Of a stretch of DNA of 64,000 nt, positions 3,272 to 51,734 are shown in pieces. How positions within the stretch are numbered: position 1 is the first letter of the stretch; every line of letters begins with the position of its first letter. Position numbers and translations under genes: made by a program. This DNA is from Heterodontus francisci (Eukaryota), in contig NC_090421.1 in the NCBI RefSeq assembly GCF_036365525.1, positions 2,993,327 through 3,057,326 on the forward strand, in the 5' to 3' direction. The notes under the pieces are model-generated. The model did no database searches, was not told the origin of the DNA, and saw nothing but the letters and a program-made list of their open reading frames with translations.

Positions 3272-4239
3272 GTTAATTGATGTTTCAGGCTGTTTCTTTT
3301 AACCACCAAATATTCCTTACCCTTTGTCTAACTTCCTGTATGTGTCACATCCATTCCCTAGCTAATGCAACAAAGAAAGGAGCACTTCTTCAAATGTCCC
3401 TCTGTAACTGATGCTACAAGGTATGCGAAAGTGACTGAGGTCACTCTCTCAACCCCTGAAATCATCCTTCTCTGCAGATTGCTCTGGCAGATATTCGATG
3501 CCTCCCAGGGCAGCCCCAGTTGCTCTAGATGACTTCAAACCAGCCTGGAAACTGATTCAAAGCCATCAGAGCCCTGGGAAAATGCTGCATACCCACATAG
3601 TTGTCAGGATTGTTGTCTGATGTTGTGTTACCAGAGCTACTGGGCTTCCAGCCCACCTTACTGCCAATGTTCTCTTGTGCATGCTTAATCGTTTAGCGCA
3701 AAAAAACATTAACAAGACTTTTAAATAACAAAATTTGTAAGAGGCTTGTCATGGAGTGGCACAGGTCACACTTGTTACACATAGAATTACATAGAATATA
3801 CAGAACAGAAAAAGGCCATTTGGCCCAAACAGTCAATGCCGGCGTTTATACTCCACTCTTGGGAAGTGCTGCCGAAGAAGCCTTGGCAAGTTGCTGCAGT
3901 GCATTTTGTAGACAGCACACATTGTGGCCACAGTGCACCAGTCTTCTGATCAGGACAGGTATCTGGTGACATCACTGATTTGAAATGTGGGTTAATGGCC
4001 CATTTCATCTCTGCTAGCTCTTTCAAACCCGATCTGCAGCTTCAGTTCATTTTATGATCAATTGATGAACGGCGTTTGGATCCATCTGTGGTAGTTATCA
4101 GTATATGGGCTGCATTTGATATTCAGATTTGATGAAGCAATTCCCTTTTAACTAAATTTCAATATATAAAAAAAAATATGCTATTTGTGCCCAACAAGGG
4201 AAGGGGTGTTAGGCCTGGGAATGGAATGTTCTCCAACAG

Positions 4240-4478
4240 CTTGTAAAAACATCCTAAGGCGCTTCACAGAAGCGATTATCAAACAGTATTTGACACTGAG
4301 CCGCATTAGAAGATATTAAGGTAAATGACCAAAAGCTTGGTCAAAGAGGTACATTTTAAGGTGTGTCTTAAAGGTGGAAAGAGGGGTAGAAATGCAGATA
4401 GGTTTAGGAAGGGAATTCCAGAGCTTCAGGCCTTGGCAGCTGAAGGCACGGCCGCCAATGAGGGAGCAATTAAAATCA
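4240..4478 (-). mobile_element. L2-type LINE 3' fragment
   Basis: Related to the reverse complement of the element at 10-110; truncated where the tandem array begins. Confidence 0.5.
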
Positions 4479-4784
4479 AACACTCCCAGGGCAGCTACAG
4501 CACGGGGTTAAATACAGAGTAAAGCTCCCTCTACACTGTCCCCATCAAACACTCCCCAGGACAGGTACAGTACAAGGGGTTAGATACAGAGTAAAGCTCC
4601 CTCTACACTGTCCCCATCAAACACTCCCAGGACAGGTACAGTACAGGGGGTTAGATACAGAGTAAAGCTCCCTCTACACTGTCCCATCAAACACTCCCAG
4701 GACAGGTACAGTACAGGGGGTTAGATACAGAGTAAAGCTCCCTCTACACTGTCCCATCAAACACTCCCAGGACAGGTACAGCAC
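4476..4784 (+). repeat. ~70-bp tandem repeat array, left part (~4.4 units); target of the Tx1 insertions
   Basis: Unit ggggttagatacagagtaaagctccctctacactgtcccatcaaacactcccaggacaggtacagcac. Period 70-72 bp (tta register at 4508, 4580, 4651, 4721). Confidence 0.95.
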
Positions 4785-5466
4785 TGGGATTGGCTGCTCT
4801 CTGATTTGGGAGCCTGAGTGTTGAGAGCCTCAACGAGGTGCAGCTGAGAGTGCTGGTGGCAGTTGGAGGTTGCAGAGGTGGAGAGAGGAGCTGCACTGAG
4901 CAAGGGAGAGCAGCTACCAACAAGCAGAGGAAAACTCCAACAACAGTCTCCATTAAAGAGAAGAAAGAGACATTTTTTGGAACAAGGCTTTGTCTGGAGG
5001 TGGGTGCTGAACACCAGTAATTTACTTTGGACTGTTGGGGGAGGAACAAGTGGCTGGAACAACAAGGGGTGGGGCTGCCAATTCAACAGGAGTCTGTGCT
5101 GCTGCAAAAGCACACAGGGAAGCTCCCTCCCCACCCCAATTGCCAAACCTGGGTCAGCTGAAGCTGCCCAGCTAAACAGACGGAAGGGGATAGATAGTGC
5201 CTGGGCAGCTTCAGCTGACCCAGGTGAAGACGACTCCCCCAACCAGAAGACCGGAAGACCAACTTCAAAGACTGTTTGTTTTAAGTGTACTGTGAGCACC
5301 ACCTCCAGAAAGCAAGTCATCCCTTCCAGCCTGCCTTTGCCTCTCCTCTCTTACCTCAGCCTCTCCACTAACCTGTTGTTTGTTTGTTTGTCTTTTCAAA
5401 TTTTTCTGTGAATCTGTTATTTAGTGTGCAAGTCCACAATTTGGGGTGGGTTTAGCTCTTGGACCC

Positions 5467-7509
5467 ATGGCAAGCCCTTCATCACCGGTGGCGGGGCCCT
5501 CTACTACCTACGCAGCTGCAGCTTCTGTGGCTGCCCACGTGGCCCCGTCACCCTTTAAATTATTGACATGCAGCCATGGGGTGAAGAGCTATCCCCACCC
5601 CAACATGTCTATTGAGGCCTGCGTTAAGGCAATGGCCGTGGTTGTCGGCCCCTCGGCCATTGTTGCGGCCTCAAAAATGTATGGGAAGGCTGTGTTCTTT
5701 TTGAAGACTGAGCGGGCGGTGTCCCTGGCCCTGAGTAAAGGGCTCACTGTGGGGGGGACCTTCCTGCCAGTGGACCCTCTGGGGGCCACTGCGCATCGGA
5801 TAATGTTGTCCAACGTCCCACCCTTCATTCCCAGTGAGCTCCTCCTCCCCCACCTACACCATCTGGGGGAGGTGAGGTCGGGGATCACCCCAGTCCGGCT
5901 TGGTCTTCGGGAGCACAGCCTCCAACATGTCTACTCCTTCCGCCGCCAGTTATTTATGCAGCTGGCGCGGGAGGAGGACACGGAGGGCCAATTTAATGTG
6001 GAGTTCCAGGGGACGGCCTACCGCGTCTTTTGGACCTCGGACGGGGCGCGGTGCCACGTCTGCAAGGGGGTGGGGCATGTTCGGAAGAACTGCCCCAACC
6101 TCCCGGCCGCCAGCTCCACCTCGGCGGCCCAGAGTGGTTCCACAGCACCTCCTCCCACTCCCCCCGCACATCCAACAGACACCGCTCAGTCGGTTCCGGA
6201 GGCTGTGGTTTTCACAGCCTCTGGCGGGGAGGGGAGCGTCCGTCCGAGCGGAAGGAAGACGCGGGGAAAAAAGAAACATCGTGAGGCGCGTCCCCTGGAC
6301 ACTTTGACTCAACCCGAGCCTGAGCTCAGCCCAAAGCCCATTCCCATGGAATCCACCTGTCCCAGGGCTGGGCTCAGGCCCAGGGTGACTAAAAAAGGAA
6401 AAAAGGGTGCGGAGGCGGAGGCCTCTGATGACATGGAGGTCTCTGAGTCTCCGCGCCCAAGTGCGAAAAAGAGGAGAAGGCACCCCTCCACAGAAATAAC
6501 ACAGGGCCCTGAGGTGCAGGGCCCATCTGTTGGAGGGGAGCTGCCTCCTGTTTCTGGTCCTCAGGTGCCCCCTACCGCCACCACCAAGGCTGCAAAGTCC
6601 GGGCAGGTGCTCCCTATTCCTCAGGATGGAGGGGAGGGGATGGCCCCGGTACGTGAGGCCCCTCCTGAAGGAGTAAGTGGGGCCCTGCTTGTGGTGGGGG
6701 AGCCTGGGGAAACCGCCCATTCCGCCACTGCTACTGGGTCGGGTGTCCTGAATGAAGGGGAGGGCGAGGCCCCAGAGGGTCGGGCCTCCCAGCCGGAGTC
6801 CACCACCAACCAGGAGACACCCGACCCAGTTATAACTGAGAATGCTGCCCCATCTGCTGGGCCTGTGGGTGCTGGCGGAGCGGGAGATGGCCTCCTCTCG
6901 CCGCCTCCAGTCTCGGCTCCGGCTGGTTTCCCGGAGTCCGGAACTTCTGTCTCCCCTGGACCAGTCATTGGCCTGGGGATGGAGGTGGAGGGGGGTCCTG
7001 AACCGCTGGTGCCTACAGGCTCCAGTTTCACAATAGAACCCAGAGAGGACTCCTCCGCCATCGATCCTGGGGGTGGGATCGTGACGGAGGCGGGACCAGC
7101 TGGCGCGGCCGGGACGTCCGCCCCACAGTGTGTGGTGGATGTGTCGGCCGCTGGCGGTGACGACCCGGAGGAGGATGGGGATTCGGTGCGGGGCACGGAG
7201 GATGATCTTGATTCCATCGCCAGTGAGGTGGTGGAGTCCCTCGTGCCTCCCACCGAATCTCCTCTCATCCCCACGGCGGAACTCCGGGATTTCCTCGCGG
7301 CTTGCAGAGGTTGCCGCAATAAAGTTCAGCTGGCCCTCGACCGTTGGTCGAATCTGGCGCTGATCATCCAGTCCGTCCGTGCCGCCCTTAAGATAGCGGG
7401 CAAGCGCGCGGACGTGAAACTGGTTGAGAGGCGCCGTTTTAATGTGTTCCTCAATGGGTTGCTGGGGGAGTGGAGGGCCAGGTGCACTTCCACTCCCTCC
7501 TCACAGTGA
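5467..7509 (+). CDS. Tx1 ORF1 protein (CCHC zinc knuckle; ZCCHC3/Tx1-ORF1-like), copy 1
   Basis: First ATG in cccATGg context; CHVCKGVGHVRKNC knuckle; long Pro/Gly/Glu-rich C-terminal half. Confidence 0.9.
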   Translation: MASPSSPVAGPSTTYAAAASVAAHVAPSPFKLLTCSHGVKSYPHPNMSIEACVKAMAVVVGPSAIVAASKMYGKAVFFLKTERAVSLALSKGLTVGGTFLPVDPLGATAHRIMLSNVPPFIPSELLLPHLHHLGEVRSGITPVRLGLREHSLQHVYSFRRQLFMQLAREEDTEGQFNVEFQGTAYRVFWTSDGARCHVCKGVGHVRKNCPNLPAASSTSAAQSGSTAPPPTPPAHPTDTAQSVPEAVVFTASGGEGSVRPSGRKTRGKKKHREARPLDTLTQPEPELSPKPIPMESTCPRAGLRPRVTKKGKKGAEAEASDDMEVSESPRPSAKKRRRHPSTEITQGPEVQGPSVGGELPPVSGPQVPPTATTKAAKSGQVLPIPQDGGEGMAPVREAPPEGVSGALLVVGEPGETAHSATATGSGVLNEGEGEAPEGRASQPESTTNQETPDPVITENAAPSAGPVGAGGAGDGLLSPPPVSAPAGFPESGTSVSPGPVIGLGMEVEGGPEPLVPTGSSFTIEPREDSSAIDPGGGIVTEAGPAGAAGTSAPQCVVDVSAAGGDDPEEDGDSVRGTEDDLDSIASEVVESLVPPTESPLIPTAELRDFLAACRGCRNKVQLALDRWSNLALIIQSVRAALKIAGKRADVKLVERRRFNVFLNGLLGEWRARCTSTPSSQ

Positions 7510-7541
7510 GCTGTTGGTGACGGGTTTTACGTACCTTTGAC

Positions 7542-10500
7542 ATGAAGATAACCATAGCCAGCCTCAACATCAACGGCAGCAGAGGGGCTCACCGCAGATT
7601 TCACAATCTCTCAGTCCTTAGGGAAGGGAGATACGCGGTGAGCTTTCTGCAGGAAACCCACACCGTTCCGGGAGACGAAGCCACCTGGCTCCTGGAGTGG
7701 CAGGGTGGGGTCTACATGAGTCACCTCACCCCTATTTCTAGTGGGGTGGCTATCTTGTTGGCCCCGACTTTTCAGCCGGAGATCTTGGGGGTCAAGGAGC
7801 TAGTGCCGGGCCGCTTGCTCCACCTCGCCGTTCGCCTGGGTAGCGTGCCGCTCCACTTTGTGAACGTGTACGCGCCCAGGCCCGGCGCTTTGCAAGCGCG
7901 CTTCTTTGAAGAAGTGTCCGCTCTCTTGAGCTCCATCGACAGCGGCGAGTGCATCATCCTCGGGGGGGATTTTAACTGCACCCTCGAGGTGGGGGATCGC
8001 TCCGGTCCCCAGCGCGGCCAAGCGTCGGTGGAGAAGTTGAGGGGACTGATCAGCTCCCTTAACTTGGTGGACGTCTGGCGGAATCTCCATCCCGACTCCA
8101 GCGCCTTCACGTGGAGGTCTGGAGGAGGGGGGTCGCGAATCGACCGCCTCTACATTTCGCAGGCGTACGTCTCCCGCGTTTCGGCGGCCTCCATGCGGCT
8201 GGTGCCGTGCTCGGACCACCGCCTGGTGTGGGCGGAGTTCACTCCGCTCCGCACGCGGGCGGGGTCCGCGTACTGGCACTTTAACAACCGGCTGCTGGAG
8301 GACGTGCGATTTCGGGACTCGTTCTGTCGATTCTGGACCGACTGGAGAAGGAAGCAGGGGGGCTTCCCCTCCTTGAGGCTATGGTGGGATGTGGGCAAGA
8401 CTCACATCCGCGTCTTCTGTCAGGAGTACGCGAAGGGGTCGACCAAGAGGCGGGAAGCCGAGGTCGGGCGCCTTGAGAGGGAGGTGCTCGACTTGGAATC
8501 CCGCCTCGGTCATGCCGTCGCGGACCCGGCCCTGTGGCAGGCGTACAAAGAGAAGAAGGGCGCGCTGAGGAACCTGCAGCTCATAGGGTCCCGAGGCGCG
8601 TACGTGAGGTCGCGGATCCAGATCCTGGAAGATTTGGACCGCGCCTCACCCTTCTTCTACTCGCTGGAAAAATGGCGGGGGGTCCGTAAGCAGCTTGTCG
8701 AGCTGCTGGCCGACGACGGATCCTCCATCACGGATCCGGAGGGAATGGGCCTCCTGGTCCGGACGTATTACAGTGCGTTGTTCTCTCCGGATCCGTCCAG
8801 CGAGGATGCGCGCAGAGTTTTGTGGGAGGACCTGCCGCAGGTCAGCCCGGAGGGCGCCGAAGGATTGGAGGCTCCGCTCACGTTGGCGGAGCTGACTGGC
8901 GCCCTCCACCAGCTCTCGAGGGGCAAATCCCCAGGGCTGGATGGGTTGACCGTGGAGTTCCTCAGGGCGTTCTGGGACGTCCTGGGGGACGATTACGCGC
9001 GGGTCCTGGGGGAAAGCCTGGCGACCGGGGAGATGCCCCTCTCGTGGCGCAGGGCGGTCATCGTCCTGCTGCCGAAGAGGGGCGATCTCCGCCTGCTTAA
9101 AAACTGGCGTCCGGTCTCCCTCCTCAGCACGGATTATAAGATCTTTGCCCGGGCTATGTCTACCCGCCTGGGCTCCGTGCTGGCCCACATGATCCACCCC
9201 GACCAGTCCTACACGGTCCCGGGCCGGTCCATCCAGGACAACATCCACCTGGTCCGGGACCTGATCCATCTTTCCCAGAGGACTGGTCAGTCGGTCGCCT
9301 TTCTCTCCCTCGATCAGGAGAAGGCGTTCGACAGGGTGGATCACGATTACCTTTTCGGGACTCTGCGCGCTTTCGGACTCGGGCCGCATTTCGTGGCCCG
9401 GGTCCGACTTTTATACGCCGCCGCAGAGTGTCTAGTCAAAGTTAACGGGTCCTTGACGGCGCCCCTTCGATTTGGGAGAGGAGTGCGTCAGGGATGCCCC
9501 ATGTCCGGCCAATTGTATACCATCTGCGTGGAGCCCTTCCTGTGCCTGCTTCGCAGGAGGTTGACGGGATTGGCTCTGCGCGAGCCGGCCATGCGGGTCG
9601 TCCTCTCGGCTTACGCCGACGACGTGCTCCTCGCAATCACAGATCCCGTTGACTCGCGGAGGATGCGCGACTGCCAGCAGACCTTTTCTGCCGCGTCCTC
9701 CGCGAGGATCAATTGGGAGAAATGTTCCGGACTCCTGGTTGGTCAGTGGCGGGTGGATTCCCTGCCGGAGGAGATGACACCTTTTGCGTGGAGCACCACG
9801 CACCTCCTCTATCTGGGAGTCCACCTTAGCCCCGCTGAGGAAGCCTGGCCGGCAAACTGGCAGGAGTTGGAGGCGAAAGTCACCGCTCGGCTGGGGCGCT
9901 GGACAGGACTGCTCCGAGTGCTTTCCTACAGGGGCCGAGCGTTGGTCATAAACCAACTGGTGGCCTCCATGCTGTGGTACCGGTTGGTCACTTTGGCCCC
10001 GCCCCCTGTATTTGCCACCAAGATCCAGAAGAAACTCGTCGATTTCTTCTGGGGCAAGAGGAAACACTGGGTCTCTGCCGCGGTCCTGAGTCTCCCGATC
10101 GAGGAGGGCGGTCAGTCGCTGGTGTGCGTCCGCACCCAGGCTGCGACTCTCCGCCTTCGGACCCTGCAGAGATACCTGTACGTCGAGCGTCCTCCCAGAT
10201 GGTGTGCGCTGGCGACGTATTTTTTCCGTCAGTGTCACTGCCTTCAAGACGACACGCAGCTCCCGGTGGAGTCCGTTAGCCGCGCCTCTCTGAGGGAGTT
10301 GCCTGTCTTTTACCGGGATCTTTTCCGAGTCTGGAACATGGTCGCCTCCAGTCAGGGCGCTCCCCCGCCGGCGGAGGAGAGCGCCTCGGCTGTCCGGGCG
10401 GCCGACTCCGGGGACGGTCCGGCGGGCGGAGGAGTAGCTGAAACCCCCGGGACGCCCCTCACTGTGGGTGGCGAGGGGGCTCGGGAGTGCGGAGCGATCC

Positions 10501-11279
10501 CGGCCGAGCTGACCCCCGCTGGGCCGGAACTGCTCATCGGACCCAGGCCCCGAAACCCTCCTCGGGAGCCGGTCCCGCACAACCCGAGCCGCCTCTCGGG
10601 AATGCCCTCCGTGCCATTCCAATCGGCGCGGAGGGGTTTCCTGTACGGGCTGCTCCTGCACACTTTCCACTTCCTCGCCCTCGTCAGCCGGCCGGACACG
10701 CCCTGGCGGTCCGCGTTGCCATCTGGCGGCGAGGGGAAACCCCGATGGAGGTCTCTCTACGCGGGAGTCTTCCCCCTTTACATCGGGGACCTGGGGTGGA
10801 GGGTGCTGCACAGAGCAGTCCCGTGCAATAGGCTTTTAAGTAGGTTCACGGACTCCCAGGCCACCTGTACTTTCTGCGGCCTGGACGAGTCCGTGTTCCA
10901 CATTTATACGGAGTGTGCGAGGTTGCAGCCCCTATTTGAGTATCTGAAGGGGCTGCTCCTCAAATTCTGGCTGCACTTCAGTCCCACGCTCCTGATCTTT
11001 GGGCACCCGGTGCGGAGGGGCTTGGGCCGGGAGGAGGATCTCCTCGTCGGTCTGCTCCTGGGCCTGGCCAAGGTGGCAATTCACAGGTCCAGGTTGCGGG
11101 CCGTCGGGGGTTCCGTCCTCCCTGATTGCCTGCCCCTCTTCCGCGGTTACGTTCGCGCCCGGGTGTCCCTGGAAAAGGAGCATGCGGTGTCCGCCGGTAC
11201 GCTTGAGGCCTTCCGCGACCGGTGGGCACCGCAGGGACTGGAGTGCATCGTCGACGCCGAGAATGGCATTTTAATTTGA
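7542..11279 (+). CDS. Tx1 ORF2 protein: APE endonuclease + reverse transcriptase + C-terminal zinc finger, copy 1
   Basis: SLNING, LQETH, GGDFN, SRIDR, SDH (APE); KSPGLDG, WRPVSLL, LDQEKAFD, RQGCPMS, YADD (RT); CTFC...H...C. 1245 aa, uninterrupted. Confidence 0.96.
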   Translation: MKITIASLNINGSRGAHRRFHNLSVLREGRYAVSFLQETHTVPGDEATWLLEWQGGVYMSHLTPISSGVAILLAPTFQPEILGVKELVPGRLLHLAVRLGSVPLHFVNVYAPRPGALQARFFEEVSALLSSIDSGECIILGGDFNCTLEVGDRSGPQRGQASVEKLRGLISSLNLVDVWRNLHPDSSAFTWRSGGGGSRIDRLYISQAYVSRVSAASMRLVPCSDHRLVWAEFTPLRTRAGSAYWHFNNRLLEDVRFRDSFCRFWTDWRRKQGGFPSLRLWWDVGKTHIRVFCQEYAKGSTKRREAEVGRLEREVLDLESRLGHAVADPALWQAYKEKKGALRNLQLIGSRGAYVRSRIQILEDLDRASPFFYSLEKWRGVRKQLVELLADDGSSITDPEGMGLLVRTYYSALFSPDPSSEDARRVLWEDLPQVSPEGAEGLEAPLTLAELTGALHQLSRGKSPGLDGLTVEFLRAFWDVLGDDYARVLGESLATGEMPLSWRRAVIVLLPKRGDLRLLKNWRPVSLLSTDYKIFARAMSTRLGSVLAHMIHPDQSYTVPGRSIQDNIHLVRDLIHLSQRTGQSVAFLSLDQEKAFDRVDHDYLFGTLRAFGLGPHFVARVRLLYAAAECLVKVNGSLTAPLRFGRGVRQGCPMSGQLYTICVEPFLCLLRRRLTGLALREPAMRVVLSAYADDVLLAITDPVDSRRMRDCQQTFSAASSARINWEKCSGLLVGQWRVDSLPEEMTPFAWSTTHLLYLGVHLSPAEEAWPANWQELEAKVTARLGRWTGLLRVLSYRGRALVINQLVASMLWYRLVTLAPPPVFATKIQKKLVDFFWGKRKHWVSAAVLSLPIEEGGQSLVCVRTQAATLRLRTLQRYLYVERPPRWCALATYFFRQCHCLQDDTQLPVESVSRASLRELPVFYRDLFRVWNMVASSQGAPPPAEESASAVRAADSGDGPAGGGVAETPGTPLTVGGEGARECGAIPAELTPAGPELLIGPRPRNPPREPVPHNPSRLSGMPSVPFQSARRGFLYGLLLHTFHFLALVSRPDTPWRSALPSGGEGKPRWRSLYAGVFPLYIGDLGWRVLHRAVPCNRLLSRFTDSQATCTFCGLDESVFHIYTECARLQPLFEYLKGLLLKFWLHFSPTLLIFGHPVRRGLGREEDLLVGLLLGLAKVAIHRSRLRAVGGSVLPDCLPLFRGYVRARVSLEKEHAVSAGTLEAFRDRWAPQGLECIVDAENGILI

Positions 11280-11415
11280 GTTTTTTGTTTATTTATCTGT
11301 TTTAATAAAGTTATTTTAAAACTGTAAATATGTACATAAAGGGGGCCTGAGGGATAAAGGCCCCCTCGATGTGAAAAATATAAAAGGGGCCTGGGGTATA
11401 AAGGTCACCTTGTGG

Positions 11416-11446
<31 letters not shown>

Positions 11447-12228
11447 GGGGTTAGATACAGAGTAAAGCTCCTTAAAAAAAAAAGAAAAAAAAAAAAAAAA
11501 AAAAAACGGGGTTAGAATAAGGAAAAAAAGAAAAAAAAAAAAACTGGGATTGGCTGCTCTCTGATTTGGGAGCCTGAGTGTTGAGAGCCTCAACGAGGTG
11601 CAGCTGAGAGTGCTGGTGGCAGTTGGAGGTTGCAGAGGTGGAGAGAGGAGCTGCACTGAGCAAGGGAGAGCAGCTACCAACAAGCAGAGGAAAACTCCAA
11701 CAACAGTCTCCATTAAAGAGAAGAAAGAGACATTTTTTGGAACAAGGCTTTGTCTGGAGGTGGGTGCTGAACACCAGTAATTTACTTTGGACTGTTGGGG
11801 GAGGAACAAGTGGCTGGAACAACAAGGGGTGGGGCTGCCAATTCAACAGGAATCTGTGCTGCTGCAAAAGCACACAGGGAAGCTCCCTCCCCACCCCAAT
11901 TGCCAAGCCTGGGTCAGCTGAAGCTGCCCAGCTAAACAGACGGAAGGGGATAGATAGTGCCTGGGCAGCTTCAGCTGACCCAGGTGAAGACGACTCCCCC
12001 AACCAGAAGACCGGAAGACCAACTTCAAAGACTGTTTATTTTAAGTGTACTGTGAGCACCACCTCCAGAAAGCAAGTCATCCCTTTCAGCCTGCCTTTGC
12101 CTCTCCTCTCTTACCTCAGCCTCTCCACTAACCTGTTGTTTGTTTGTTTGTCTTTTCAAATTTTTCTGTGAGTCGCTGTTATTTAGTGTGCAAGTCCACA
12201 ATTTGGGGTGGGTTTAGCTCTTGGACCC

Positions 12229-14265
12229 ATGGCAAGCCCTTCATCACCGGTGGCGGGGCCCTCTACTACCTACGCAGCTGCAGCTTCTGTGGCTGCCCAC
12301 GTGGCCCCGTCACCCTTTAAATTATTGACATGCAGCCATGGGGTGAAGAGCTATCCCCACCCCAACATGTCTATTGAGGCCTGCGTTAAGGCAATGGCCG
12401 TGGTTGTCGGCCCCTCGGCCATAGTTGCGGCCTCAAAGATGTATGGGAAGGCTGTGTTCTTTTTGAAGACCGAGCGGGCGGTGTCCCTGGCCCTGAGTAA
12501 AGGGCTCACTGTGGGGGGGACCTTCCTGCCAGTGGACCCTCTGGGGGCCACTGCGCATCGGATAATGTTGTCCAACGTCCCACCCTTCATTCCCAGTGAG
12601 CTCCTCCTCCCCCACCTGCACCATCTGGGGGAGGTGAGGTCGGGGATCACCCCAGTCCGGCTTGGTCTTCGGGAGCACAGCCTCCAACATGTCTACTCCT
12701 TCCGCCACCAGTTATTTATGCAGCTGGCGCGGGAGGAGGACACGGAGGGCCAATTTAATGTGGAGTTCCAGGGGACGGCCTACCGCGTCTTTTGGACCTC
12801 GGACGGGGCGCGGTGCCATGTCTGCAAGGGGGTGGGGCATGTTCGTAAGAACTGCCCCAACCTCCCGGCCGCCAGCTCCACCTCGGCGGCCCAGAGTGGT
12901 TCCACAGCACCTCCTCCCACTCCCCCCGCACATCCAACAGACACCGCTCAGTCGGTTCCGGAGGCTGTGGTTTTCACAGCCTCTGGCGGGGAGGGGAGCG
13001 TCCGTCCGAGCGGAAGGAAGACGCGGGGAAAAAAGAAACATCGTGAGGCGCGTCCCCTGGACACTTTGACTCAACCCGAGCCTGAGCTCAGCCCAAAGCC
13101 CATTCCCATGGAATCCACCTGTCCCAGGGCTGGGCTCAGGCCCAGGGTGACTAAAAAAGGAAAAAAGGGTGCGGAGGCCTCTGATGACATGGAGGTCTCT
13201 GAGTCTCCGCGCCCAAGTGCGAAAAAGAGGAGAAGGCACCCCTCCACAGAAATAACACAGGGCCCTGAGGTGCAGGGCCCATCTGTTGGAGGGGAGCTGC
13301 CTCCTGTTTCTGGTCCTCAGGTTCCCCCTACCGCCACCACCAAGGCTGCAAAGTCCGGGCAGGAGCACTCTATTCCTCAGGATGGAGGGGAGGGGATGGC
13401 CCCGGTACGTGAGGCCCCTCCTAAAGGAGTAAGTGGGGCCCTGCTTGTGGTGGGGGAGCCTGGGGAAACCGCCCATTCCGCCACTGCTACTGGGTCGGGT
13501 GCCCTGAATGAAGGGGAGGGCGAGGCCCCAGAGGGTCGGGCCTCCCAGCCGGAGTCCACCACCAACCAGGAGACACCCGACCCAGTTATAACTGAGAATG
13601 CTGCCCCATCTGCTGGGCCTGTGGGTGCTGGCGGAGTGGGAGATGGCCTCCTCTCGCCGCCTCCAGTCTCGGCTCCGGCTGGTTTCCCGGAGTCCGGAAC
13701 TTCTGTCTCCCCTGGACCACTCGTTGGCCTGGGGATGGAGGTGGAGGGGGGTCCTGAACCGCTGGTGCCTACAGGCTCCAGTTTCACAATAGAACCCAGA
13801 GAGGACTCCTCCGCCATCGATCCTGGGGGTGGGATCGTGACGGAGGCGGGACCAGCTGGCGCGGCTGGGACGTCCGCCCCACAGTGTGTGGTGGATGTGT
13901 CGGCCGCTGGCGGTGACGACCCGGAGGAGGATGGGGATTCGGTGCGGGGCACGGAGGATGATCTTGATTCCATCGCCAGTGAGGTGGTGGAGTCCCTCGT
14001 GCCTCCCACCGAATCTCCTCTCATCCCCACGGCGGAACTCCGGGATTTCCTCGTGGCTTGCAGAGGTTGCCGCAATAAAGTTCAGCTGGCCCTCGACCGT
14101 TGGTCGAATCTGGCACTGATCATCCAGTCCGTCCGTGCCGCCCTTAAGATAGCGGGCAAGCGCGCGGACGTGAAACTGGTTGAGAGGCGCCGTTTTAATG
14201 TGTTCCTCAATGGGTTGCTGGGGGAGTGGAGGGCCAGGTGCACTTCCACTCCCTCCTCACAGTGA
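12229..14265 (+). CDS. Tx1 ORF1 protein, copy 2
   Basis: As copy 1, with a 6-bp in-frame deletion (EAEAS to EAS) and several substitutions. Confidence 0.9.
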   Translation: MASPSSPVAGPSTTYAAAASVAAHVAPSPFKLLTCSHGVKSYPHPNMSIEACVKAMAVVVGPSAIVAASKMYGKAVFFLKTERAVSLALSKGLTVGGTFLPVDPLGATAHRIMLSNVPPFIPSELLLPHLHHLGEVRSGITPVRLGLREHSLQHVYSFRHQLFMQLAREEDTEGQFNVEFQGTAYRVFWTSDGARCHVCKGVGHVRKNCPNLPAASSTSAAQSGSTAPPPTPPAHPTDTAQSVPEAVVFTASGGEGSVRPSGRKTRGKKKHREARPLDTLTQPEPELSPKPIPMESTCPRAGLRPRVTKKGKKGAEASDDMEVSESPRPSAKKRRRHPSTEITQGPEVQGPSVGGELPPVSGPQVPPTATTKAAKSGQEHSIPQDGGEGMAPVREAPPKGVSGALLVVGEPGETAHSATATGSGALNEGEGEAPEGRASQPESTTNQETPDPVITENAAPSAGPVGAGGVGDGLLSPPPVSAPAGFPESGTSVSPGPLVGLGMEVEGGPEPLVPTGSSFTIEPREDSSAIDPGGGIVTEAGPAGAAGTSAPQCVVDVSAAGGDDPEEDGDSVRGTEDDLDSIASEVVESLVPPTESPLIPTAELRDFLVACRGCRNKVQLALDRWSNLALIIQSVRAALKIAGKRADVKLVERRRFNVFLNGLLGEWRARCTSTPSSQ

Positions 14266-14297
14266 GGTGTTGGTGACGGGTTTTAAGTACCTTTGAC

Positions 14298-17200
14298 ATG
14301 AAGATAACCATAGCCAGCCTCAACATCAACGGCAGCAGAGGGGCTCACCGCAGATTTCACAATCTCTCAGTCCTTAGGGAAGGGAGATACGCGGTGAGCT
14401 TTCTGCAGGAAACCCACACCGTTCCGGGAGACGAAGCCACCTGGCTCCTGGAGTGGCAGGGTGGGGTCTACATGAGTCACCTCACCCCTATTTCTAGTGG
14501 GGTGGCTATCTTGTTGGCCCCGACTTTTCAGCCGGAGATCTTGGGGGTCAAGGAGCTAGTGCCGGGCCGCTTGCTCCACCTCGCCGTTCGCCTGGGTAGC
14601 GTGCCGCTCCACTTTGTGAACGTGTACGCGCCCAGGCCCGGCGCGTTGCAAGCGCGCTTCTTTGAAGAAGTGTCCGCTCTCTTGAGCTCCATCGATAGCG
14701 GCGAGTGCATCATCCTCGGGGGGGATCTTAACTGCACCCTCGAGGTGGGGGATCGCTCCGGTCCCCAGCGCGGCCAAGCGTCGGTGGAGAAGTTGAGGGG
14801 ACTGATCAGCTCCCTTAACTTGGTGGACGTCTGGCGGAATCTCCATCCCGACTCCAGCGCCTTCACGTGGAGGTCTGGAGGAGGGGGGTCGCGAATCGAC
14901 CGCCTCTACATTTCGCAGGCGTACGTCTCCCGCGTTTCGGCGGCCTCCATGCGGCTGGTGCCGTGCTCGGACCACCGCCTGGTGTGGGCGGAGTTCACTC
15001 CGCTCCGCACGCGGGCGGGGTCCGCGTACTGGCACTTTAACAACCGGCTGCTGGAGGACGTGCGATTTCGGGACTCGTTCTGTCGATTCTGGGCCGACTG
15101 GAGAAGGAAGCAGGGGGGCTTCCCCTCCTTGAGGCTATGGTGGGATGTGGGCAAGACTCACATCCGCGTCTTCTGTCAGGAGTACGCGAAGGGGTCGACC
15201 AAGAGGCGGGAAGCCGAGGTCGGGCGCCTTGAGAGGGAGGTGCTCGACTTGGAATCCCGCCTCGGTCATGCCGTCGCGGACCCGGCCCTGTGGCAGGCGT
15301 ACAAAGAGAAGAAGGGCGCGCTGAGGAACCTGCAGCTCATAGGGTCCCGAGGCGCGTACGTGAGGTCGCGGATCCAGATCCTGGAAGATTTGGACCGCGC
15401 CTCACCCTTCTTCTACTCGCTGGAAAAATGGCGGGGGGTCCGTAAGCAGCTCATCGAGCTGCTGGCCGACGACGGATCCTCCATCACGGATCCAGAGGGA
15501 ATGGGCCTCCTGGTCCGGACTTATTACAGTGCGTTGTTCTCTCCGGATCCGTCCAGCGAGGATGCGCGCAGAGTTTTGTGGGAGGACCTGCCGCAGGTCA
15601 GCCCGGAGGGCGCCGAAGGATTGGAGGCTCCGCTCACGTTGGCGGAGCTGACTGGCGCCCTCCACCAGCTCTCGAGGGGCAAATCCCCAGGGCTGGATGG
15701 GTTGACCGTGGAGTTCCTCAGGGCGTTCTGGGACGTCCTGGGGGACGATTACGCGCGGGTCCTGGGGGAAAGCCTGGCGACCGGGGAGATGCCCCTCTCG
15801 TGGCGCAGGGCGGTCATCGTCCTGCTGCCGAAGAGGGGCGATCTCCGCCTGCTTAAAAACTGGCGTCCGGTCTCCCTCCTCAGCACGGATTATAAGATCT
15901 TTGCCCGGGCTATGTCTACCCGCCTGGGCTCCGTGCTGGCCCACATGATCCACCCCGACCAGTCCTACACGGTCCCGGGCTGGTCCATCCAGGACAACAT
16001 CCACCTGGTCCGGGACCTGATCCATCTTTCCCAGAGGACTGGTCAGTCGGTCGCCTTTCTCTCCCTCGATCAGGAGAAGGCGTTCGACAGGGTGGATCAC
16101 GATTACCTTTTCGGGACTCTGCGCGCTTTCGGACTCGGGCCGCATTTCGTGGCCTGGGTCCGACTTTTATACGCCGCCGCAGAGTGTCCAGTCAAAGTTA
16201 ACGGGTCCTTGACGGCGCCCCTTCGATTTGGGAGAGGAGTGCGTCAGGGGTGTCCCATGTCCGGCCAATTGTATACCATCTGCGTGGAGCCCTTCCTGTG
16301 CCTGCTTCGCAGGAGGTTGACGGGATTGGCTCTGCGCGAGCCGGCCATGCGGGTCGTCCTCTCGGCTTACGCCGACGACGTGCTCCTCGCAATCACAGAT
16401 CCCGTTGACTTGCGGAGGATGCGCGACTGCCAGCAGACCTTTTCTGCCGCGTCCTCCGCGAGGATCAATTGGGAGAAATGTTCCGGACTCCTGGTTGGTC
16501 AGTGGCGGGTGGACTCCCTGCCGGAGGAGATGACACCTTTTGCGTGGAGCACCACGCACCTCCTCTATCTGGGAGTCCAGCTTAGCCCCGCTGAGGAAGC
16601 CTGGCAGGCAAACTGGCAGGAGTTGGAGGCGAAAGTCACCGCTCGGCTGGGGCGCTGGACAGGACTGCTCCGAGTGCTTTCCTACAGGGGCCGAGCGTTG
16701 GTCATAAACCAACTGGTGGCCTCCATGCTGTGGTACCGGTTGGTCACTTTGGCCCCGCCCCCTGTATTTGCCACCAAGATCCAGAAGAAACTCGTCGATT
16801 TCTTCTGGGGCAAGAGGAAACACTGGGTCTCTGCCGCGGTCCTGAGTCTCCCGATTGAGGAGGGAGGTCAGTCGCTGGTGTGCGTCCGCACCCAGGCTGC
16901 GACTCTCCGCCTTCGGACCCTGCAGAGATACCTGTACGTCGAGCGTCCTCCCAGATGGTGTGCGCTGGCGACGTATTTTTTCCGCCAGTGTCACTGCCTT
17001 CAAGACGACACGCAGCTCCCGGTTGAGTCCGTTAGCCGCGCCTCTCTGAGGGAGTTGCCTGTCTTTTACCGGGATCTATTCCGAGTCTGGAACATGGTCG
17101 CCTCCAGTCAGGGTGCTCCCCCGCCGGCGGAGGAGAGCGCCTCGGCTGTCCGGGTGGCTGACTCCGGGGACGGTCCGGCGGGCGGAGGAGTAGCCGAAAC

Positions 17201-18035
17201 CCCCGGGACGCCCCTCACTGCGGGTGGCGAGGGGGCTTGGGAGTGCGGAGCGATCCCGACAGAGCTGACCCCCGCTCGGCCGGAACTGCTCATCGGACCC
17301 AGGCCCCGAAACCCTCCTCGGGAGCCGGTCCCGCACAACCCGAGCCGCCTCTCGGAAATGCCCTCCGTGCCATTCCAATCGGCGCAGAGGGCTTTCCTGT
17401 ACGGGCTGCTCCTGCACACTCTCCACTTCCTCGCCCTCGTCAGCCGGCCGGACACGCCCTGGCGGTCCGTGTTGCCATCTGGTGGCGAGGGGAAACCCCG
17501 ATGGAGGTCTCTCTACGCGGGAGTCTTCCCCCTTTACATCGGGGACCTGGGGTGGAGGGTGCTGCACAGAGCAGTCCCGTGCAATAGACTTTTAAGTAGG
17601 TTCACGGACTCCCAGGCCGCCTGTACTTTCTGCGGCCTGGACGAGTCCGTGTTCCATGTTTATACGGAGTGTGCGAGGTTGCAGCCCTTCTTTGAGTATC
17701 TGAAGGGGCTGCTCCTCAAATTCTTGCTGCACTTCAGTCCCACGCTCCTGATCTTTGGGCACCCGGTGCGGAGGGGCGTGGGCCGGGAGGAGGATCTCCT
17801 CGTCGGTCTGCTCCTGGGCCAGGCCAAGGTGGCAATTCACAGGTCCAGGTTGCGGGCCGTCGGGGGTTCCGTCCTGCCCGATTGCCTGCCCCTCTTCCGC
17901 GGTTACGTTCGCGCCCGGGTGTCCCTGGAGAAGGAGCATGCGGTGTCTGCCGGTACGCTTGAGGCCTTCTGCGACCGGTGGGCACCGCAGGGACCGGAGT
18001 GCATCATTGACGCCGAAAATGGCATTTTAATTTGA
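14298..18035 (+). CDS. Tx1 ORF2 protein, copy 2
   Basis: 1245 aa, uninterrupted; 28 aa differences from copy 1 by manual comparison. Confidence 0.96.
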   Translation: MKITIASLNINGSRGAHRRFHNLSVLREGRYAVSFLQETHTVPGDEATWLLEWQGGVYMSHLTPISSGVAILLAPTFQPEILGVKELVPGRLLHLAVRLGSVPLHFVNVYAPRPGALQARFFEEVSALLSSIDSGECIILGGDLNCTLEVGDRSGPQRGQASVEKLRGLISSLNLVDVWRNLHPDSSAFTWRSGGGGSRIDRLYISQAYVSRVSAASMRLVPCSDHRLVWAEFTPLRTRAGSAYWHFNNRLLEDVRFRDSFCRFWADWRRKQGGFPSLRLWWDVGKTHIRVFCQEYAKGSTKRREAEVGRLEREVLDLESRLGHAVADPALWQAYKEKKGALRNLQLIGSRGAYVRSRIQILEDLDRASPFFYSLEKWRGVRKQLIELLADDGSSITDPEGMGLLVRTYYSALFSPDPSSEDARRVLWEDLPQVSPEGAEGLEAPLTLAELTGALHQLSRGKSPGLDGLTVEFLRAFWDVLGDDYARVLGESLATGEMPLSWRRAVIVLLPKRGDLRLLKNWRPVSLLSTDYKIFARAMSTRLGSVLAHMIHPDQSYTVPGWSIQDNIHLVRDLIHLSQRTGQSVAFLSLDQEKAFDRVDHDYLFGTLRAFGLGPHFVAWVRLLYAAAECPVKVNGSLTAPLRFGRGVRQGCPMSGQLYTICVEPFLCLLRRRLTGLALREPAMRVVLSAYADDVLLAITDPVDLRRMRDCQQTFSAASSARINWEKCSGLLVGQWRVDSLPEEMTPFAWSTTHLLYLGVQLSPAEEAWQANWQELEAKVTARLGRWTGLLRVLSYRGRALVINQLVASMLWYRLVTLAPPPVFATKIQKKLVDFFWGKRKHWVSAAVLSLPIEEGGQSLVCVRTQAATLRLRTLQRYLYVERPPRWCALATYFFRQCHCLQDDTQLPVESVSRASLRELPVFYRDLFRVWNMVASSQGAPPPAEESASAVRVADSGDGPAGGGVAETPGTPLTAGGEGAWECGAIPTELTPARPELLIGPRPRNPPREPVPHNPSRLSEMPSVPFQSAQRAFLYGLLLHTLHFLALVSRPDTPWRSVLPSGGEGKPRWRSLYAGVFPLYIGDLGWRVLHRAVPCNRLLSRFTDSQAACTFCGLDESVFHVYTECARLQPFFEYLKGLLLKFLLHFSPTLLIFGHPVRRGVGREEDLLVGLLLGQAKVAIHRSRLRAVGGSVLPDCLPLFRGYVRARVSLEKEHAVSAGTLEAFCDRWAPQGPECIIDAENGILI

Positions 18036-18182
18036 GTTTTTGTTGATTTATCTGGTCTTAAATAAAGTTATTTTTTTTTAAACCTGTAAATATGTATATA
18101 AAGGGGGCCTGAGGAATAAAGGCCCCCTCAACATGAAAATATAAAAGGGGCCTGGGGTATAAAGGTCACCTTAAAACAAAAA

Positions 18183-18395
18183 CGGGGGTTAGATAAAAAA
18201 AAAACGGGGGTTAAAAAAAAAGAAAAAGAAAAAAAAAAACGGGGGTTAGATACAGAGTAAAGCTCCCTCTACACTGCCCCATCAAACATTCCCAGGACAG
18301 GTAAAGCACGGGGGTTAGATAAAAAAAATTGGGGGTTAGATACAGAGTAAAAAAAAACGGGTTAGATACAGAGTAAAGCTCCCTCTACACTGTCC
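18183..18395 (+). repeat. ~70-bp tandem repeat array, right part, interrupted by A-tracts
   Basis: One full unit (18240-18308) plus partial units, each restarting at (c)ggg(gg)tt after an A-tract. Confidence 0.92.
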
Positions 18396-18751
18396 AAACA
18401 ATGTGCCTTGAGCCGAACCTCATAAGGAAGCCCCCAAATGCACGTATACAATGTTTTTCTATGAAACAAACCAATCATCCTTCTGACCTGTGGGAATGAG
18501 ATTGTAAATTTAATACAAATTTATGACCACATTTCCATGGTCAGTTCACGGGCAGCATAGATGGGGATTGGGATGCAGGCAACCTGCTTGTTCTCTTGTT
18601 CATAGTTAGTATATGGAACAGAGAAAGACAGGTCAGAAAATTTAGAATAATAACCTTGAGCAAAAAAATTGATTCTAAAAACAATGATTAAGATGGTGTG
18701 GCTGTTAGTTCCTGCAGTTAATGTATGTTTCTCACCTGCCCTTCTTCTTAG

Positions 18752-20999: not shown

Positions 21000-22430
21000 G
21001 TATGTGATTTGTATTTTTGGGTGCAGGAGACGAGAGGGAAGAGGAAGGATGTGAATCTAAATTGGGAATTTTAAATTATGAACGTCATCATGTTGACTAC
21101 TTCAGGGGGGACCTTTGATCTTTGAGCCTTGGATTAAAAGCCCCACAGGCTGATAGCTACCAGAATGCTAGATGAAGTGAATTTGAGCTGTCTCAATCCA
21201 GTTCCTAGTGGGCTTTACAGAATTACCCAGCAGAAATATCACAGTGACCAATATCTCACTCAGAAAAGCCAGAATGATGGCTGGTGCAGGGAATGAAAAA
21301 TACCCATGGCTCGGCTGTGGGTGTTTCTTTGGGCGTGGTATATTGTTGGGACAGAGTGCAGGGAACGTTTCTGTGTACATGACTGACATACAAATCTGAC
21401 CTGGACATGTTGGTGTTCACTGGCACTGGGGACAAAAAGTGGGAACATTTTCATTGCCCAGACACCTTTTACCTGATTTAGAGCAAAAAAAAACGAGCAG
21501 TGTAGGAGGGGAGAATGCTCAGCCATGCTTCCAGCTCCTGGCTGCTATCTAGCAACCCCTGCTGGAAAGAGGGTGTGATGTTGGGTGATCATAAAATCAT
21601 AGAATGATGCAGCCATTCAGCCCATCGTGCCTGTGCTGGCTTTTTAGGTGGTGAGCGGACTTGGTGGCCCTGAGGCTGTCAATCCTCGAGTTGTCTGCCG
21701 ACACCTCACTGTGCAAAGTCACAAATGAAGCATTGCCACCTGAGCAAGGTACAGGAGGGAACCTACCAACCACGGAACAAGAACCCAACAAAGAGTTAAT
21801 GCCTCCAGCAGAGGAAGGAAGGGGAGAAGGTTGACTGGAAAAGGTGCAGGGTGGTGGGGGAAGTAAAAGACTGATTTGGAAGGCATATTAAGTAGTTTGT
21901 ACACATTAGAAGCAGGGAGTGCTCTCGTGAAAATGGGGTTGGCATATTGTTGGTGTACCATAGAGGGAGCTGTACTCTACATCAAAGCATGATACACCTG
22001 ACCTGGGAGTGCTTCGTGCTGACTCTGGGACAAAGGAATTGGAATATGTTTCATTCCCTGGCAGTGACATCCTTCCCTTGATTGATGCTTTGCTTTTTTA
22101 TCTGACAGTGTTTTCTCCTGATCTCCTGAAAGCTGACTCCCTGTGGGAAAGTGGTTCCAAAAGCAGTGGCTGCTTTCCAATATTTCACCCAAGTGTCCAT
22201 TCCTCAGGCGTCAGCCTGGGCAGTGTGTGTCAGCAAGCTATTACATACACCGTGGACAGCATCACAGTTGTGACTGATCCTGTCCTTCCCCCATTGGCCA
22301 CTCACAGCCACACCCACTTTTTACAAAGGCTATGGGCTACACTGGAAAGATCCCATTTACTGCCCAATGAATGCCACCTTCTTGAGCCACGGCAGACCTT
22401 TCCAGCAGGGGTCACTGCATAGCAATCAGG

Positions 22431-41232: not shown

Positions 41233-41852
41233 GTGTCGGGCTGTGGGGAACTCCGTGTCGGGCTGTGGGGAACTCCGTGTCGGGCTGTGGGGAACTCCGT
41301 GTCGGGCTGTGGGGAGCTCCGTGCCGGGCTGTGGGGAGCTCCGTGCCGGGCTGTGGGGAGCTCCGTGCCGGGCTGTGGGGAGCTCCGTGCCGGGCTGTGG
41401 GGAGCTCCGTGTCGGGCTGTGGGGAGCTCCGTGTCGGGCTGTGGGGAGCTCCGTGTCGGGCGGTGGTGAACTCTGATGGGCTGTGGGGAACTCTGTGATG
41501 GGCTGTGGGGAGCTCCGTGATGGGCTGTGGGGAGCTCCGTGATGGGCTGTGGGGAGCTCCGTGATGGGCTGTGGGGAACTCCGTGTCGGGCTGTGGGGAG
41601 CTCCGTGTCGGGCTGTGGGGAACTCTGATGGACTGTGGGGAGCTCCGTGTCGGGCGGTGGTGAACTCCGTGTCGGGCGGTGGTGAACTCCGTGTCGGGCG
41701 GTGGTGAACTCCGTGTCGGGCTGTGGGGAGCTCCGTGTCGGGCTGTGGGGAGCTCCGTGTCGGGCGGTGGTGAACTCTGATGGGCTGTGGGGAACTCTGT
41801 GATGGGCTGTGGGGAACTCTGTGATGGGCTGTGGGGAACTCCGTGATGGGCT
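41233..41852 (+). repeat. G-rich 22-bp minisatellite (~28 units)
   Basis: Unit gggctgtggggagctccgtgtc with variants; period 22. Confidence 0.95.
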
Positions 41853-50628: not shown

Positions 50629-51734
50629 AAGAGGGAATTTTCCTCCACACAAGATCAGGGGGCAGGTTGTTCAACCTTGCCCGTCTAAGAGCGAAGTCCA
50701 AAGTACGGAAAGTCCTCATCAGAGAACTCCTCTTTGCTGACGATGCTGCTTTAACATCTCACACTGAAGAATGCCTGCAGAGTCTCATCGACAGGTTTGC
50801 GTCTGCCTGCAATGAATTTGGCCTAACCATCAGCCTCAAGAAAACGAACATCATGGGGCAGGATGTCAGAAATGATCCATCCATCAATATTGGCGACCAC
50901 GCTCTGGAAGTGGTTCAAGAGTTCACCTACCTAGGCTCAACTATCACCAGTAACCTGTCTCTAGATGCAGAAATCAACAAGCGCATGGGTAAGGCTTCCA
51001 CTGCTATGTCCAGACTGGCCAAGAGAGTGTGGGAAAATGGCGCACTGACACGGAACACAAAAGTCCGAGTGTATCAGGCCTGTGTCCTCAGTACCTTGCT
51101 CTACGGCAGCGAGGCCTGGACAACGTATGCCAGCCAAGAGCGACGTCTCAATTCATTCCATCTTCGCTGCCTTCGGAGAATACTTGGCATCAGGTGGCAG
51201 GACTATATCTCCAACACAGAAGTCCTTGAAGCGGCCAACACCCCCAGCTTATACACACTACTGAGTCAGCGGCGCTTGAGATGGCTTGGCCATGTGAGCC
51301 GCATGGAAGATGGCAGGATCCCCAAAGACACATTGTACAGCGAGCTCGCCACTGGTATCAGACCCACCGGCCGTCCATGTCTCCGTTATAAAGACGTCTG
51401 CAAACGCGACATGAAATCGTGTGACATTGATCACAAGTCGTGGGAGTCAGTTGCCAGCATTCGCCAGAGCTGGCGGGCAGCCATAAAGACAGGGCTAAAT
51501 TGTGGCGAGTCGAAGAGACTTAGTAGTTGGCAGGAAAAAAGACAGAGGCGCAAGGGGAGAGCCAACTGTGCAACAGCCCCAACAAACAAATTTCTCTGCA
51601 GCACCTGTGGAAGAGCCTGTCACTCCAGAATTGGCCTTTATAGCCACTCCAGGCGCTGCTTCACAAACCACTGACCACCTCCAGGCGCGTATCCATTGTC
51701 TCTCGAGATAAGGAGGCCCAAAAGAAAAGAAAAG
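50629..51734 (+). mobile_element. 5'-truncated RTE-clade LINE
   Basis: Open frame 50667-51674: LLFADD, FTYLGS, LRWLGHV.RM.DGRIPK, C-terminal CxxC...H finger. (aaaag)n tail. TSD aaaagctg at 50621-50628 and 51735-51742. Confidence 0.9.

Follow-up and report, generated by a model that had tools for sequence, protein, structure and literature searches.

The 64,000-nt window analyzed here (C51:2993327-3057326 of the 6.0-Gb assembly of the shark Heterodontus francisci) contains two 6.6-kb long interspersed nuclear elements (LINEs), which interrupt a minisatellite with a 69/70-bp unit at one position within an intron of a BAZ2A-like gene. We conclude that they probably represent a Tx1-clade LINE family whose preference for one site of the 69-bp minisatellite is strong but leaky, and that this family also spreads the site. 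The following was read in the DNA: the insertion site is precise, off-target copies are flanked by duplications, target sequence has been moved in tails, one array has been re-used, and the 5' heads of the elements were found solely on target. An earlier note on the window had proposed a new sequence-specific Tx1 element inserted in a tandem repeat. Beyond this, our analysis indicates that the element carries target sequence at both ends of its RNA and spreads it, and that the repeat unit comes from an old dispersed repeat.

The two elements and the interrupted array

The array, the elements with their open reading frames (ORFs) and untranslated regions (UTRs), and the tails are arranged as follows (positions in the window).

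3278-18751, + strand: host intron of the BAZ2A-like gene, on the same strand as both elements
4475-4783, + strand: array left of element 1, about 4.4 units of 69-70 bp
4759-4783, + strand: final 25 nt of target ahead of the head of element 1, a putative RNA 5' leader replacing the local unit
4784-11415, + strand: element 1, full-length LINE assigned to the Tx1 clade
5147-5225, + strand: perfect 25-bp inverted repeat in the 5' UTR of element 1
5467-7509, + strand: ORF1 of element 1, 680 amino acids (aa), one CCHC knuckle at aa 196-209
7542-11279, + strand: ORF2 of element 1, 1245 aa, with APE endonuclease, reverse transcriptase (RT) and C-terminal zinc-binding region
11290-11411, + strand: 3' UTR with three hairpins (fold z = -4.06)
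11416-11543, + strand: compound tail of element 1, consisting of A30, 26 nt of target (11446-11471), an A-run, 10 nt of target (11507-11516), 6 other nt and an A-run
11544-18172, + strand: element 2, full-length LINE assigned to the Tx1 clade
12229-14265, + strand: ORF1 of element 2, 678 aa
14298-18035, + strand: ORF2 of element 2, 1245 aa
18173-18239, + strand: compound tail of element 2, containing two target fragments of 12 and 8 nt
18240-18395, + strand: right array part, in which A-runs at 18321 and 18349 make two further breaks at the same site

The minisatellite was called at 4475-4788 with a period of 70 and 4.5 copies. Directly ahead of element 1 stands GGACAGGTACAGCA; at positions -3 to -1 this junction unit has GCA, and the local units have GTA. 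The 8 nt with which element 1 opens are similar to the target's downstream half. CGGGG(G)TTAGA comes after the tail in both elements (at 11446 and 18183), and A-runs alternate with target fragments of 8-26 nt (at 11446, 11507, 18183 and 18205, and again at 18309-18357).

The elements are 98.4% identical over 6,637 columns, and all four ORFs are open. The catalytic motifs of ORF2 are intact in element 1, from which element 2 differs by 28 aa, including a change of GDFN to GDLN. ORF2 matched PF03372 (APE) and PF00078 (RT), and its endonuclease matched L1 endonuclease structures at E 1e-20; the zf-RVT match of ORF2 (E 1e-4) and the zf-CCHC match of the ORF1 knuckle (CX2CX4HX4C at aa 196; E 0.013) were below the cut-off. 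As described for the Tx1 clade, a CCHC ORF1 lies upstream of an APE-RT-zinc-binding ORF2, and the copies have poly(A) tails and target-site duplications. In a quick IQ-TREE analysis of 69 rows (midpoint root, no named L1 outgroup, hits short of aa 30-740 excluded), ORF2 grouped with Xenopus Tx1 (P0023) and with sturgeon and turtle proteins in a 13-row clade, with a Shimodaira-Hasegawa-like approximate likelihood ratio test (SH-aLRT) support of 100. The ORF2 sequences thus support the assignment of both window elements to the Tx1 clade. Judged by sequence identity between copies, the family could be currently active.

Several points of the earlier note were confirmed: two full-length Tx1 elements with open ORFs and with APE and RT domains split the array, the same target position follows each tail, the clade is Tx1 (50% identity to Xenopus Tx1 ORF2), and the inferred nick, placed opposite C/A by the off-target duplications described below, is not of the L1 type. 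Two points refine this picture: an A-run, not the upstream target half, precedes element 2, and the tails are compound.

Family size and precision of the site

Genome-wide, the family has at least 1,457 3' ends, counted by an exact 28-nt 3' motif in 6.0 Gb, and the exact head of this subfamily occurred 293 times. The exact empty 29-nt site was found 4,220 times. An exact 31-nt empty site occurred 2,230 times and A12 joined to 17 nt of the downstream half 428 times, each with a reversed control of 0, showing that the tail-target junctions are not due to chance. Heads and empty sites concentrate near contig ends. Among the 30 best 5'-end loci, ACAGCA stands ahead of 26 and an A-run ahead of 4; among the first 100 listed of the 293 heads, 78 are preceded by ACAGNA, 14 by an A-run and 8 by one-letter target variants. 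Furthermore, subfamilies with other 5' UTRs and 86-98% body identity enter at the same base. As judged from these junctions, the preferred site is base-precise, and the sequence identities support a young family.

Public sequencing runs of five further organisms contain 35-63% of the sampled element words. One of these organisms has a 2,452-nt contig differing from the element at 14 positions, and contigs of organism E link upstream target to truncated copies. Organisms B and D (runs X9 and X12) have the element at about 99% identity, as in close relatives or after horizontal transfer. Runs X19 and X20, which had small shares, were left out. Two metagenome pattern scans gave 0 matches.

Other sequences were also seen at the site. 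Foreign poly(A) inserts stand at the same target base in L114 (~1790-2160), L062 (1105-1500), L090, L092, L047 and L050. One of these, which resembles a short interspersed element (SINE) and is presumably of the V-SINE type, has a 15-16 bp duplication, and several short foreign RNAs carry AATAAA or ATTAAA 13-31 nt ahead of the tail. These inserts suggest trans-mobilization or long read-through. Unrelated minisatellites were entered at three loci (L223, L239, L079), two of them at target-like cores. On C21, four loci among L218, L221, L222, L225 and L226 share the same flank and the fifth is closely similar, as expected of segmental duplicates carrying the element. In L179, the element and about 120 nt of flank are repeated on both sides, as by tandem duplication or read-through. 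Telomere targeting was considered, the site containing one GGGTTAG, and rejected: no junction that was read entered (TTAGGG)n, although no dedicated search was run.

Insertion specificity

All 66 3' ends on two whole contigs, C1 (45 ends) and C2 (21 ends), were classed by eye at both flanks. Both flanks were on target for 27 copies and one flank for 7; 31 copies were off target and 1 was unclear. On C1 (288 Mb) the on-target copies fall at 5.8-20.4 Mb and on C2 (227 Mb) at 212.9-225.2 Mb; off-target copies are mostly contig-interior. All 31 off-target copies are 5'-truncated (49-1,262 nt). A head was present in 16 of the 34 on-target copies vs 0 of the 31 off-target copies (p = 4e-6), so that all 16 census copies with a head are on target. 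Some off-target copies are nearly identical to element 1 (L141 and L169, 100%; L146, 99.5%; L186, 98.8%), and the misses are therefore recent too. The census proportion of 27-34 of 66 exceeds the >20% of flanks by which PMC4494074 recognizes a target-specific Tx1 family (papers given by PMC number were available in part, and statements on them refer to those parts). It falls short of strict site specificity of the Keno, R2 or strict Utopia type, 31 of 66 copies being off target. According to these flanks, targeting appears to be real but leaky, with about half of the copies missing.

Duplications at 22 off-target sites measure 8-18 bp (median, 14). At their left border, C stands at -1 in 15 of 22 (background, 22%; p = 6e-6) and at -4 in 12. 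These preferences match GTACAGC/ACGGGG, in which the slash marks the insertion point, and place the probable bottom-strand nick at TCTAACCCCGT/G, which is a non-L1 site.

A conceivable but rather unlikely alternative is that the endonuclease reads just the short C/A core, and that the enrichment in the minisatellite comes mostly from RNA-DNA homology, with the leader and the read-through tail pairing to the array, or from subtelomeric chromatin and not from protein readout. The weak consensus at off-target sites and the clustering of on-target copies near contig ends are consistent with it. The hairpin loop of APE endonucleases is a specificity determinant, and here it is glycine-rich and four residues shorter than in Xenopus Tx1. 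However, 5'-truncated copies, the SINE-like insert and foreign poly(A) RNAs enter the same base with duplications of their own (L016, L122, L138, L192, L114, L062), and two unrelated minisatellites were entered at look-alike C/ACGG cores (L223, L239).

Far less probable is a strictly site-specific, tool-suitable element whose off-target copies are old relics. Every head examined is on target, identity to element 1 is 82-96% in many of the off-target copies, and when the sequence after poly(A) was inspected, as the earlier note had proposed, the tail was followed by target or another head in 30 of the 30 best-scoring (youngest) 3' ends. However, this sample is confounded by transduced target: in L022, 18 nt of target and another A-run come before unrelated DNA. 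In addition, the near-identical off-target copies listed above are not relics. A test of the 3' flank would score 50 of 66 census copies on target, as compared to 27-34 by two flanks, and thus overstates specificity because off-target copies carry target in their tails. This is a warning that the usual 3'-flank test inflates specificity. Of the sequence specificity claimed in the earlier note, the base-precise preferred site stands and strictness does not. The proposed safe-harbour target and insertion tool is not supported, 31 of 66 ends lying in unrelated DNA; as a tool the element is weaker than proposed, and tool-grade specificity is unsupported.

Target sequence in the tails

In 17 of the 31 off-target copies, target follows right after the first A-run, and then come a second A-run and the true flank. 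The carried arrays can be long: about 580 bp between 14-bp duplications in L104, 4.5 units in L106 and more than 3 units in L167. L107 is an array with an A-tail and duplication but without element sequence. The fragments between two A-runs were identical to the next unit in 4 of 36 cases (4 of 46 with a cruder parser), whereas neighboring intact units match each other in 27-66 of 139, depending on length. This low match indicates that the fragments derive from other loci, and it rules out that they are target-site duplications. L016 shows a duplication and a foreign fragment together: an 11-bp duplication with a private variant surrounds a truncated copy, and the foreign fragment lies in the tail of that copy. 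A length peak at 37 nt was not used, since it probably reflects element ends misread as target.

At C17:33.05 Mb (L253/L220/L012), a truncated copy and carried target are inserted in unrelated DNA and bounded by 14-bp duplications with one mismatch. The truncated copy is 91-95% identical to element 1; the carried target in turn contains a full-length copy with 99.9% identity over 1,713 nt. This age gap argues for seeding of a site, followed by its re-use.

The last two 3' UTR hairpins carry ATAAA in their loops, and copies end after either hairpin, which would fit weak polyadenylation and read-through. In 142 tails, the A-runs ahead of target total 3,149 letters, of which 100 are G, 19 are C and 11 are T; the dominant G interruptions may reflect mixed tailing or later mutation. 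In L187, a tRNA-like piece (by eye) stands between the left duplication and the truncated element, about 100 nt left of the element, which suggests a template switch; ARAGORN found one atypical tRNA in this locus, which may be this piece.

That there is no targeting, and that the element hitchhikes with the repeat by transduction and by tandem and segmental duplication, is most improbable and already largely refuted: although 17 of 31 off-target copies carry target and duplicated loci exist (the C21 set, L179), copies with independent truncation points have their own short duplications in arrays with private variants, copies 86-100% identical to element 1 with differing 5' UTRs use the same base, and in contigs of a second organism (X13) target is joined to truncated copies.

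5' ends of full-length copies

Full-length heads begin with a degenerate copy of the downstream target. Truncated on-target copies retain 0-17 nt of downstream target on their left, and full-length copies retain none. Variants of the previous unit at -25 to -7 were kept at 0 of 18 head junctions vs 25 of 58 junctions between intact units (p = 3e-4); at -39 to -26 there was no such loss (5 of 12 head junctions vs 6 of 28 controls). T at -2 was present ahead of 2 of 100 heads vs 23 of 100 empty sites, a difference that a cutting preference could explain. In L223, where a different minisatellite was entered, the order is 11 nt of the local site, three further letters, canonical upstream target over 25 nt, and the head. 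We infer a 25-27-nt RNA leader that overwrites the upstream half of the target. For 11 of 20 heads sought, the 3' end was found; the remainder were probably displaced by internal deletions.

At least 5 different 5' UTRs, all starting with degenerate target and TTGGCT, stand on near-identical ORF2 (L151-L160, L178-L202). This diversity resembles L1 promoter swapping.

Origin of the target unit

Three features of the window bear on the origin of the unit, together with a further partial copy of the old repeat at 47014-47148 (- strand).

18359-18573, + strand: last array unit, continuing into the flank of the old dispersed repeat (profile E 2e-20; copy outside the training set)
21171-21462, - strand: decayed monomeric copy of the old dispersed repeat
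21825-22074, - strand: another monomeric copy of this repeat, likewise decayed

The decayed look-alike at 21825-22074 matched 17 other dispersed copies with 72-81% identity. Aligned, the dispersed copies gave an old repeat of about 300 bp, the core of which is one minisatellite unit. A profile of 11 dispersed copies matched the right end of the window array with its flank, and also other array ends outside the training set, indicating that many arrays grew in place from the old repeat. By these alignments, the 69-bp unit represents the core of an old dispersed repeat, amplified into arrays.

In 700-bp searches, 2 of 10 dispersed copies matched Rfam uc_338 at model positions 38-110 in target orientation (L206, E 0.003, 22.4 bits; L212, E 0.18, 16.3 bits), far below the 120-bit cut-off. 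The printed model consensus agrees at 14 of 14 nt across the insertion site. The eight other copies (including L211, the window copies and five other loci) gave no match. A genome-wide uc_338 search was empty, as was its control, so that it is uninformative. ARAGORN found no tRNA head in 6 loci, where decay could hide one given the 70-80% likeness of the copies. A protein search with the translated repeat, made for its taxa, gave a single match. According to PMC9829027, uc.338 is located in PCBP2, for which PMC9148063 and PMC3698499 report an LF-SINE-derived exon. An LF-SINE/uc.338 origin of the old repeat is thus an unproven lead. If it were true, conserved exons and enhancers, and no safe harbours, would be the nearest sites in tetrapods.

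It is possible, although we regard it as doubtful, that the element itself made and maintains the minisatellite, in a closed cycle between a retrotransposon and a target that it propagates itself, starting from an LF-SINE-like core. The ancestral target would then be a single site in the core of an LF-SINE-like SINE, its motif being kept in tetrapod uc.338, and read-through would scatter arrays that serve as new landing sites. The 69-bp unit covers about -28 to +41 around the cut in the old-repeat core, leaders start at -25 to -27 (L223, L048), and read-through tails commonly end at +26 to +46; joining of a tail end to a leader would therefore produce the unit junction.

Proposed mechanism

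For a Tx1 element with a leaky site preference, we propose the following course. The APE domain would nick the bottom strand opposite the top-strand C/A (5'-TCTAACCCCGT/GCTGTA), and reverse transcription would be primed on the poly(A). A second nick about 14 nt downstream would give rise to the duplication. The full-length RNA would begin 25-27 nt inside the upstream target, and the end of its complementary DNA (cDNA) would anneal to the upstream half and overwrite it, yielding an invariant junction without visible duplication and favoring completion on target. Weak poly(A) signals in the hairpin loops would let transcripts read into the downstream array; target pieces would accumulate in tails, and off-target events would plant new landing sites.

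Several observations weigh against this explanation. The census covers 66 of 1,457 ends classed by eye and counts survivors, so that selection and array recombination may alter the on-target proportion; four loci on C21, for instance, have a flank in common. For 9 of the 31 off-target copies there was no convincing automatic duplication call. The duplication starts with A at 21 of 22 off-target sites, a number partly fixed by site anchoring, and these sites share just the weak C/A core, so that the endonuclease alone may not explain the enrichment. Re-use of a seeded site is clear at one locus only. At the 5' end, there was no ribozyme or other Rfam RNA match below E 0.05, and the predicted folding of the first 216 nt is no stronger than that of shuffled sequence (z 0.07). 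The explanation as a whole is built on genome sequence.

Cut site, duplication length, capture of 5' homology and 3' read-through, all steps of APE-type targeting, are readable from the genome for this family, which makes it a young vertebrate example with many copies. It also illustrates a route by which a target-preferring element may multiply its own target, which bears on element survival and on the origin of dispersed minisatellites.

Host gene and other features of the window

Fifteen exons of the BAZ2A-like gene lie on the + strand (719-44968), and the array and both elements share one intron; the BAZ2A-like protein of Heterodontus francisci is 100% identical to the host exon in the window. 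A separate 22-bp minisatellite of 28.5 copies (41233-41852) adjoins an exon of this gene. Other retroelement ORFs are located at 22514-25148 (- strand), 50853-51674 (+), 54322-54861 (+) and 55407-57122 (+), and we take them to be CR1-, RTE- and Penelope-like. A palindromic repeat resembling a miniature inverted-repeat transposable element was seen by eye at about 2720-2960, and similar sequence lies beside several of the examined loci.

Comparison with known systems

In L1 3' transduction, read-through past a weak poly(A) signal produces patterned tails and moved flanks, and L1 subfamilies have undergone 5' UTR replacement. L1 moves an arbitrary flank, whereas the shark element moves its own target. 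R2 5' replacement and R1 read-through are likewise known. R2 and R1 of ribosomal DNA resemble the shark element in having RNA with flanking target and homology-guided 5' joining, but their targets are host-kept genes, whereas the shark target is non-genic and element-moved, and no ribozyme was found in the shark element. Co-transcription of R2 is cited in PMC4494074. LF-SINE/uc.338 in PCBP2 is alike at the cut motif, with scores far below the cut-off and no tRNA head found.

YURE inserts into U2_sat, a satellite derived from U2 (PMC4640811), and thus also enters a satellite derived from another repeat; its endonuclease is restriction-like and not APE. In its Fig. 3 legend, PMC4494074 labels some Tx1 families 'Sat', and these are, by this label, alike in satellite insertion. 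The Tx1 targets given in the same paper comprise Tx1D, U2, U5, 5S, microsatellites, satellites, Mariner, Harbinger and long terminal repeat elements, and co-transcription from upstream target is proposed there for Tx1. The accessible portions of PMC5753468 and PMC3747384 mention no shark Tx1 target. Our literature search, which did not extend to Repbase, Dfam and most subscription papers, yielded no account of this element-target pair. The novelty of the target claimed in the earlier note may hold for the pair, but not for the kind of target, since satellites and transposons are already listed.

The closest relatives are other Tx1 elements. Tx1L/Tx1 of Xenopus laevis (YTX2_XENLA-type 149 kDa ORF2, P0023) is 50% identical over 1,240 aa and shares the APE-RT layout, the 13-row clade and a target inside another repeat (Tx1D; PMC4494074). 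The shark element differs from it in the target, the shorter endonuclease hairpin loop, the off-target location of about half of its copies and the two-ended carriage of target. Crocodilian Tx1-Mar/SINEU (PMC4494074) also prefers a site in an old abundant repeat, shows tandem insertions around a duplication and trans-mobilized short RNAs, and has upstream-target 5' extensions, read there as co-transcription. Its target is a Mariner MITE (miniature inverted-repeat transposable element) and its families are old (85-87% to consensus), whereas the shark family targets a minisatellite, includes copies with 100% identity and visibly disperses target by 3' read-through. In summary, satellite- and transposon-targeting Tx1 elements were already known, and what the shark family adds is that target is carried at both ends and that the seeding of new sites can be seen.

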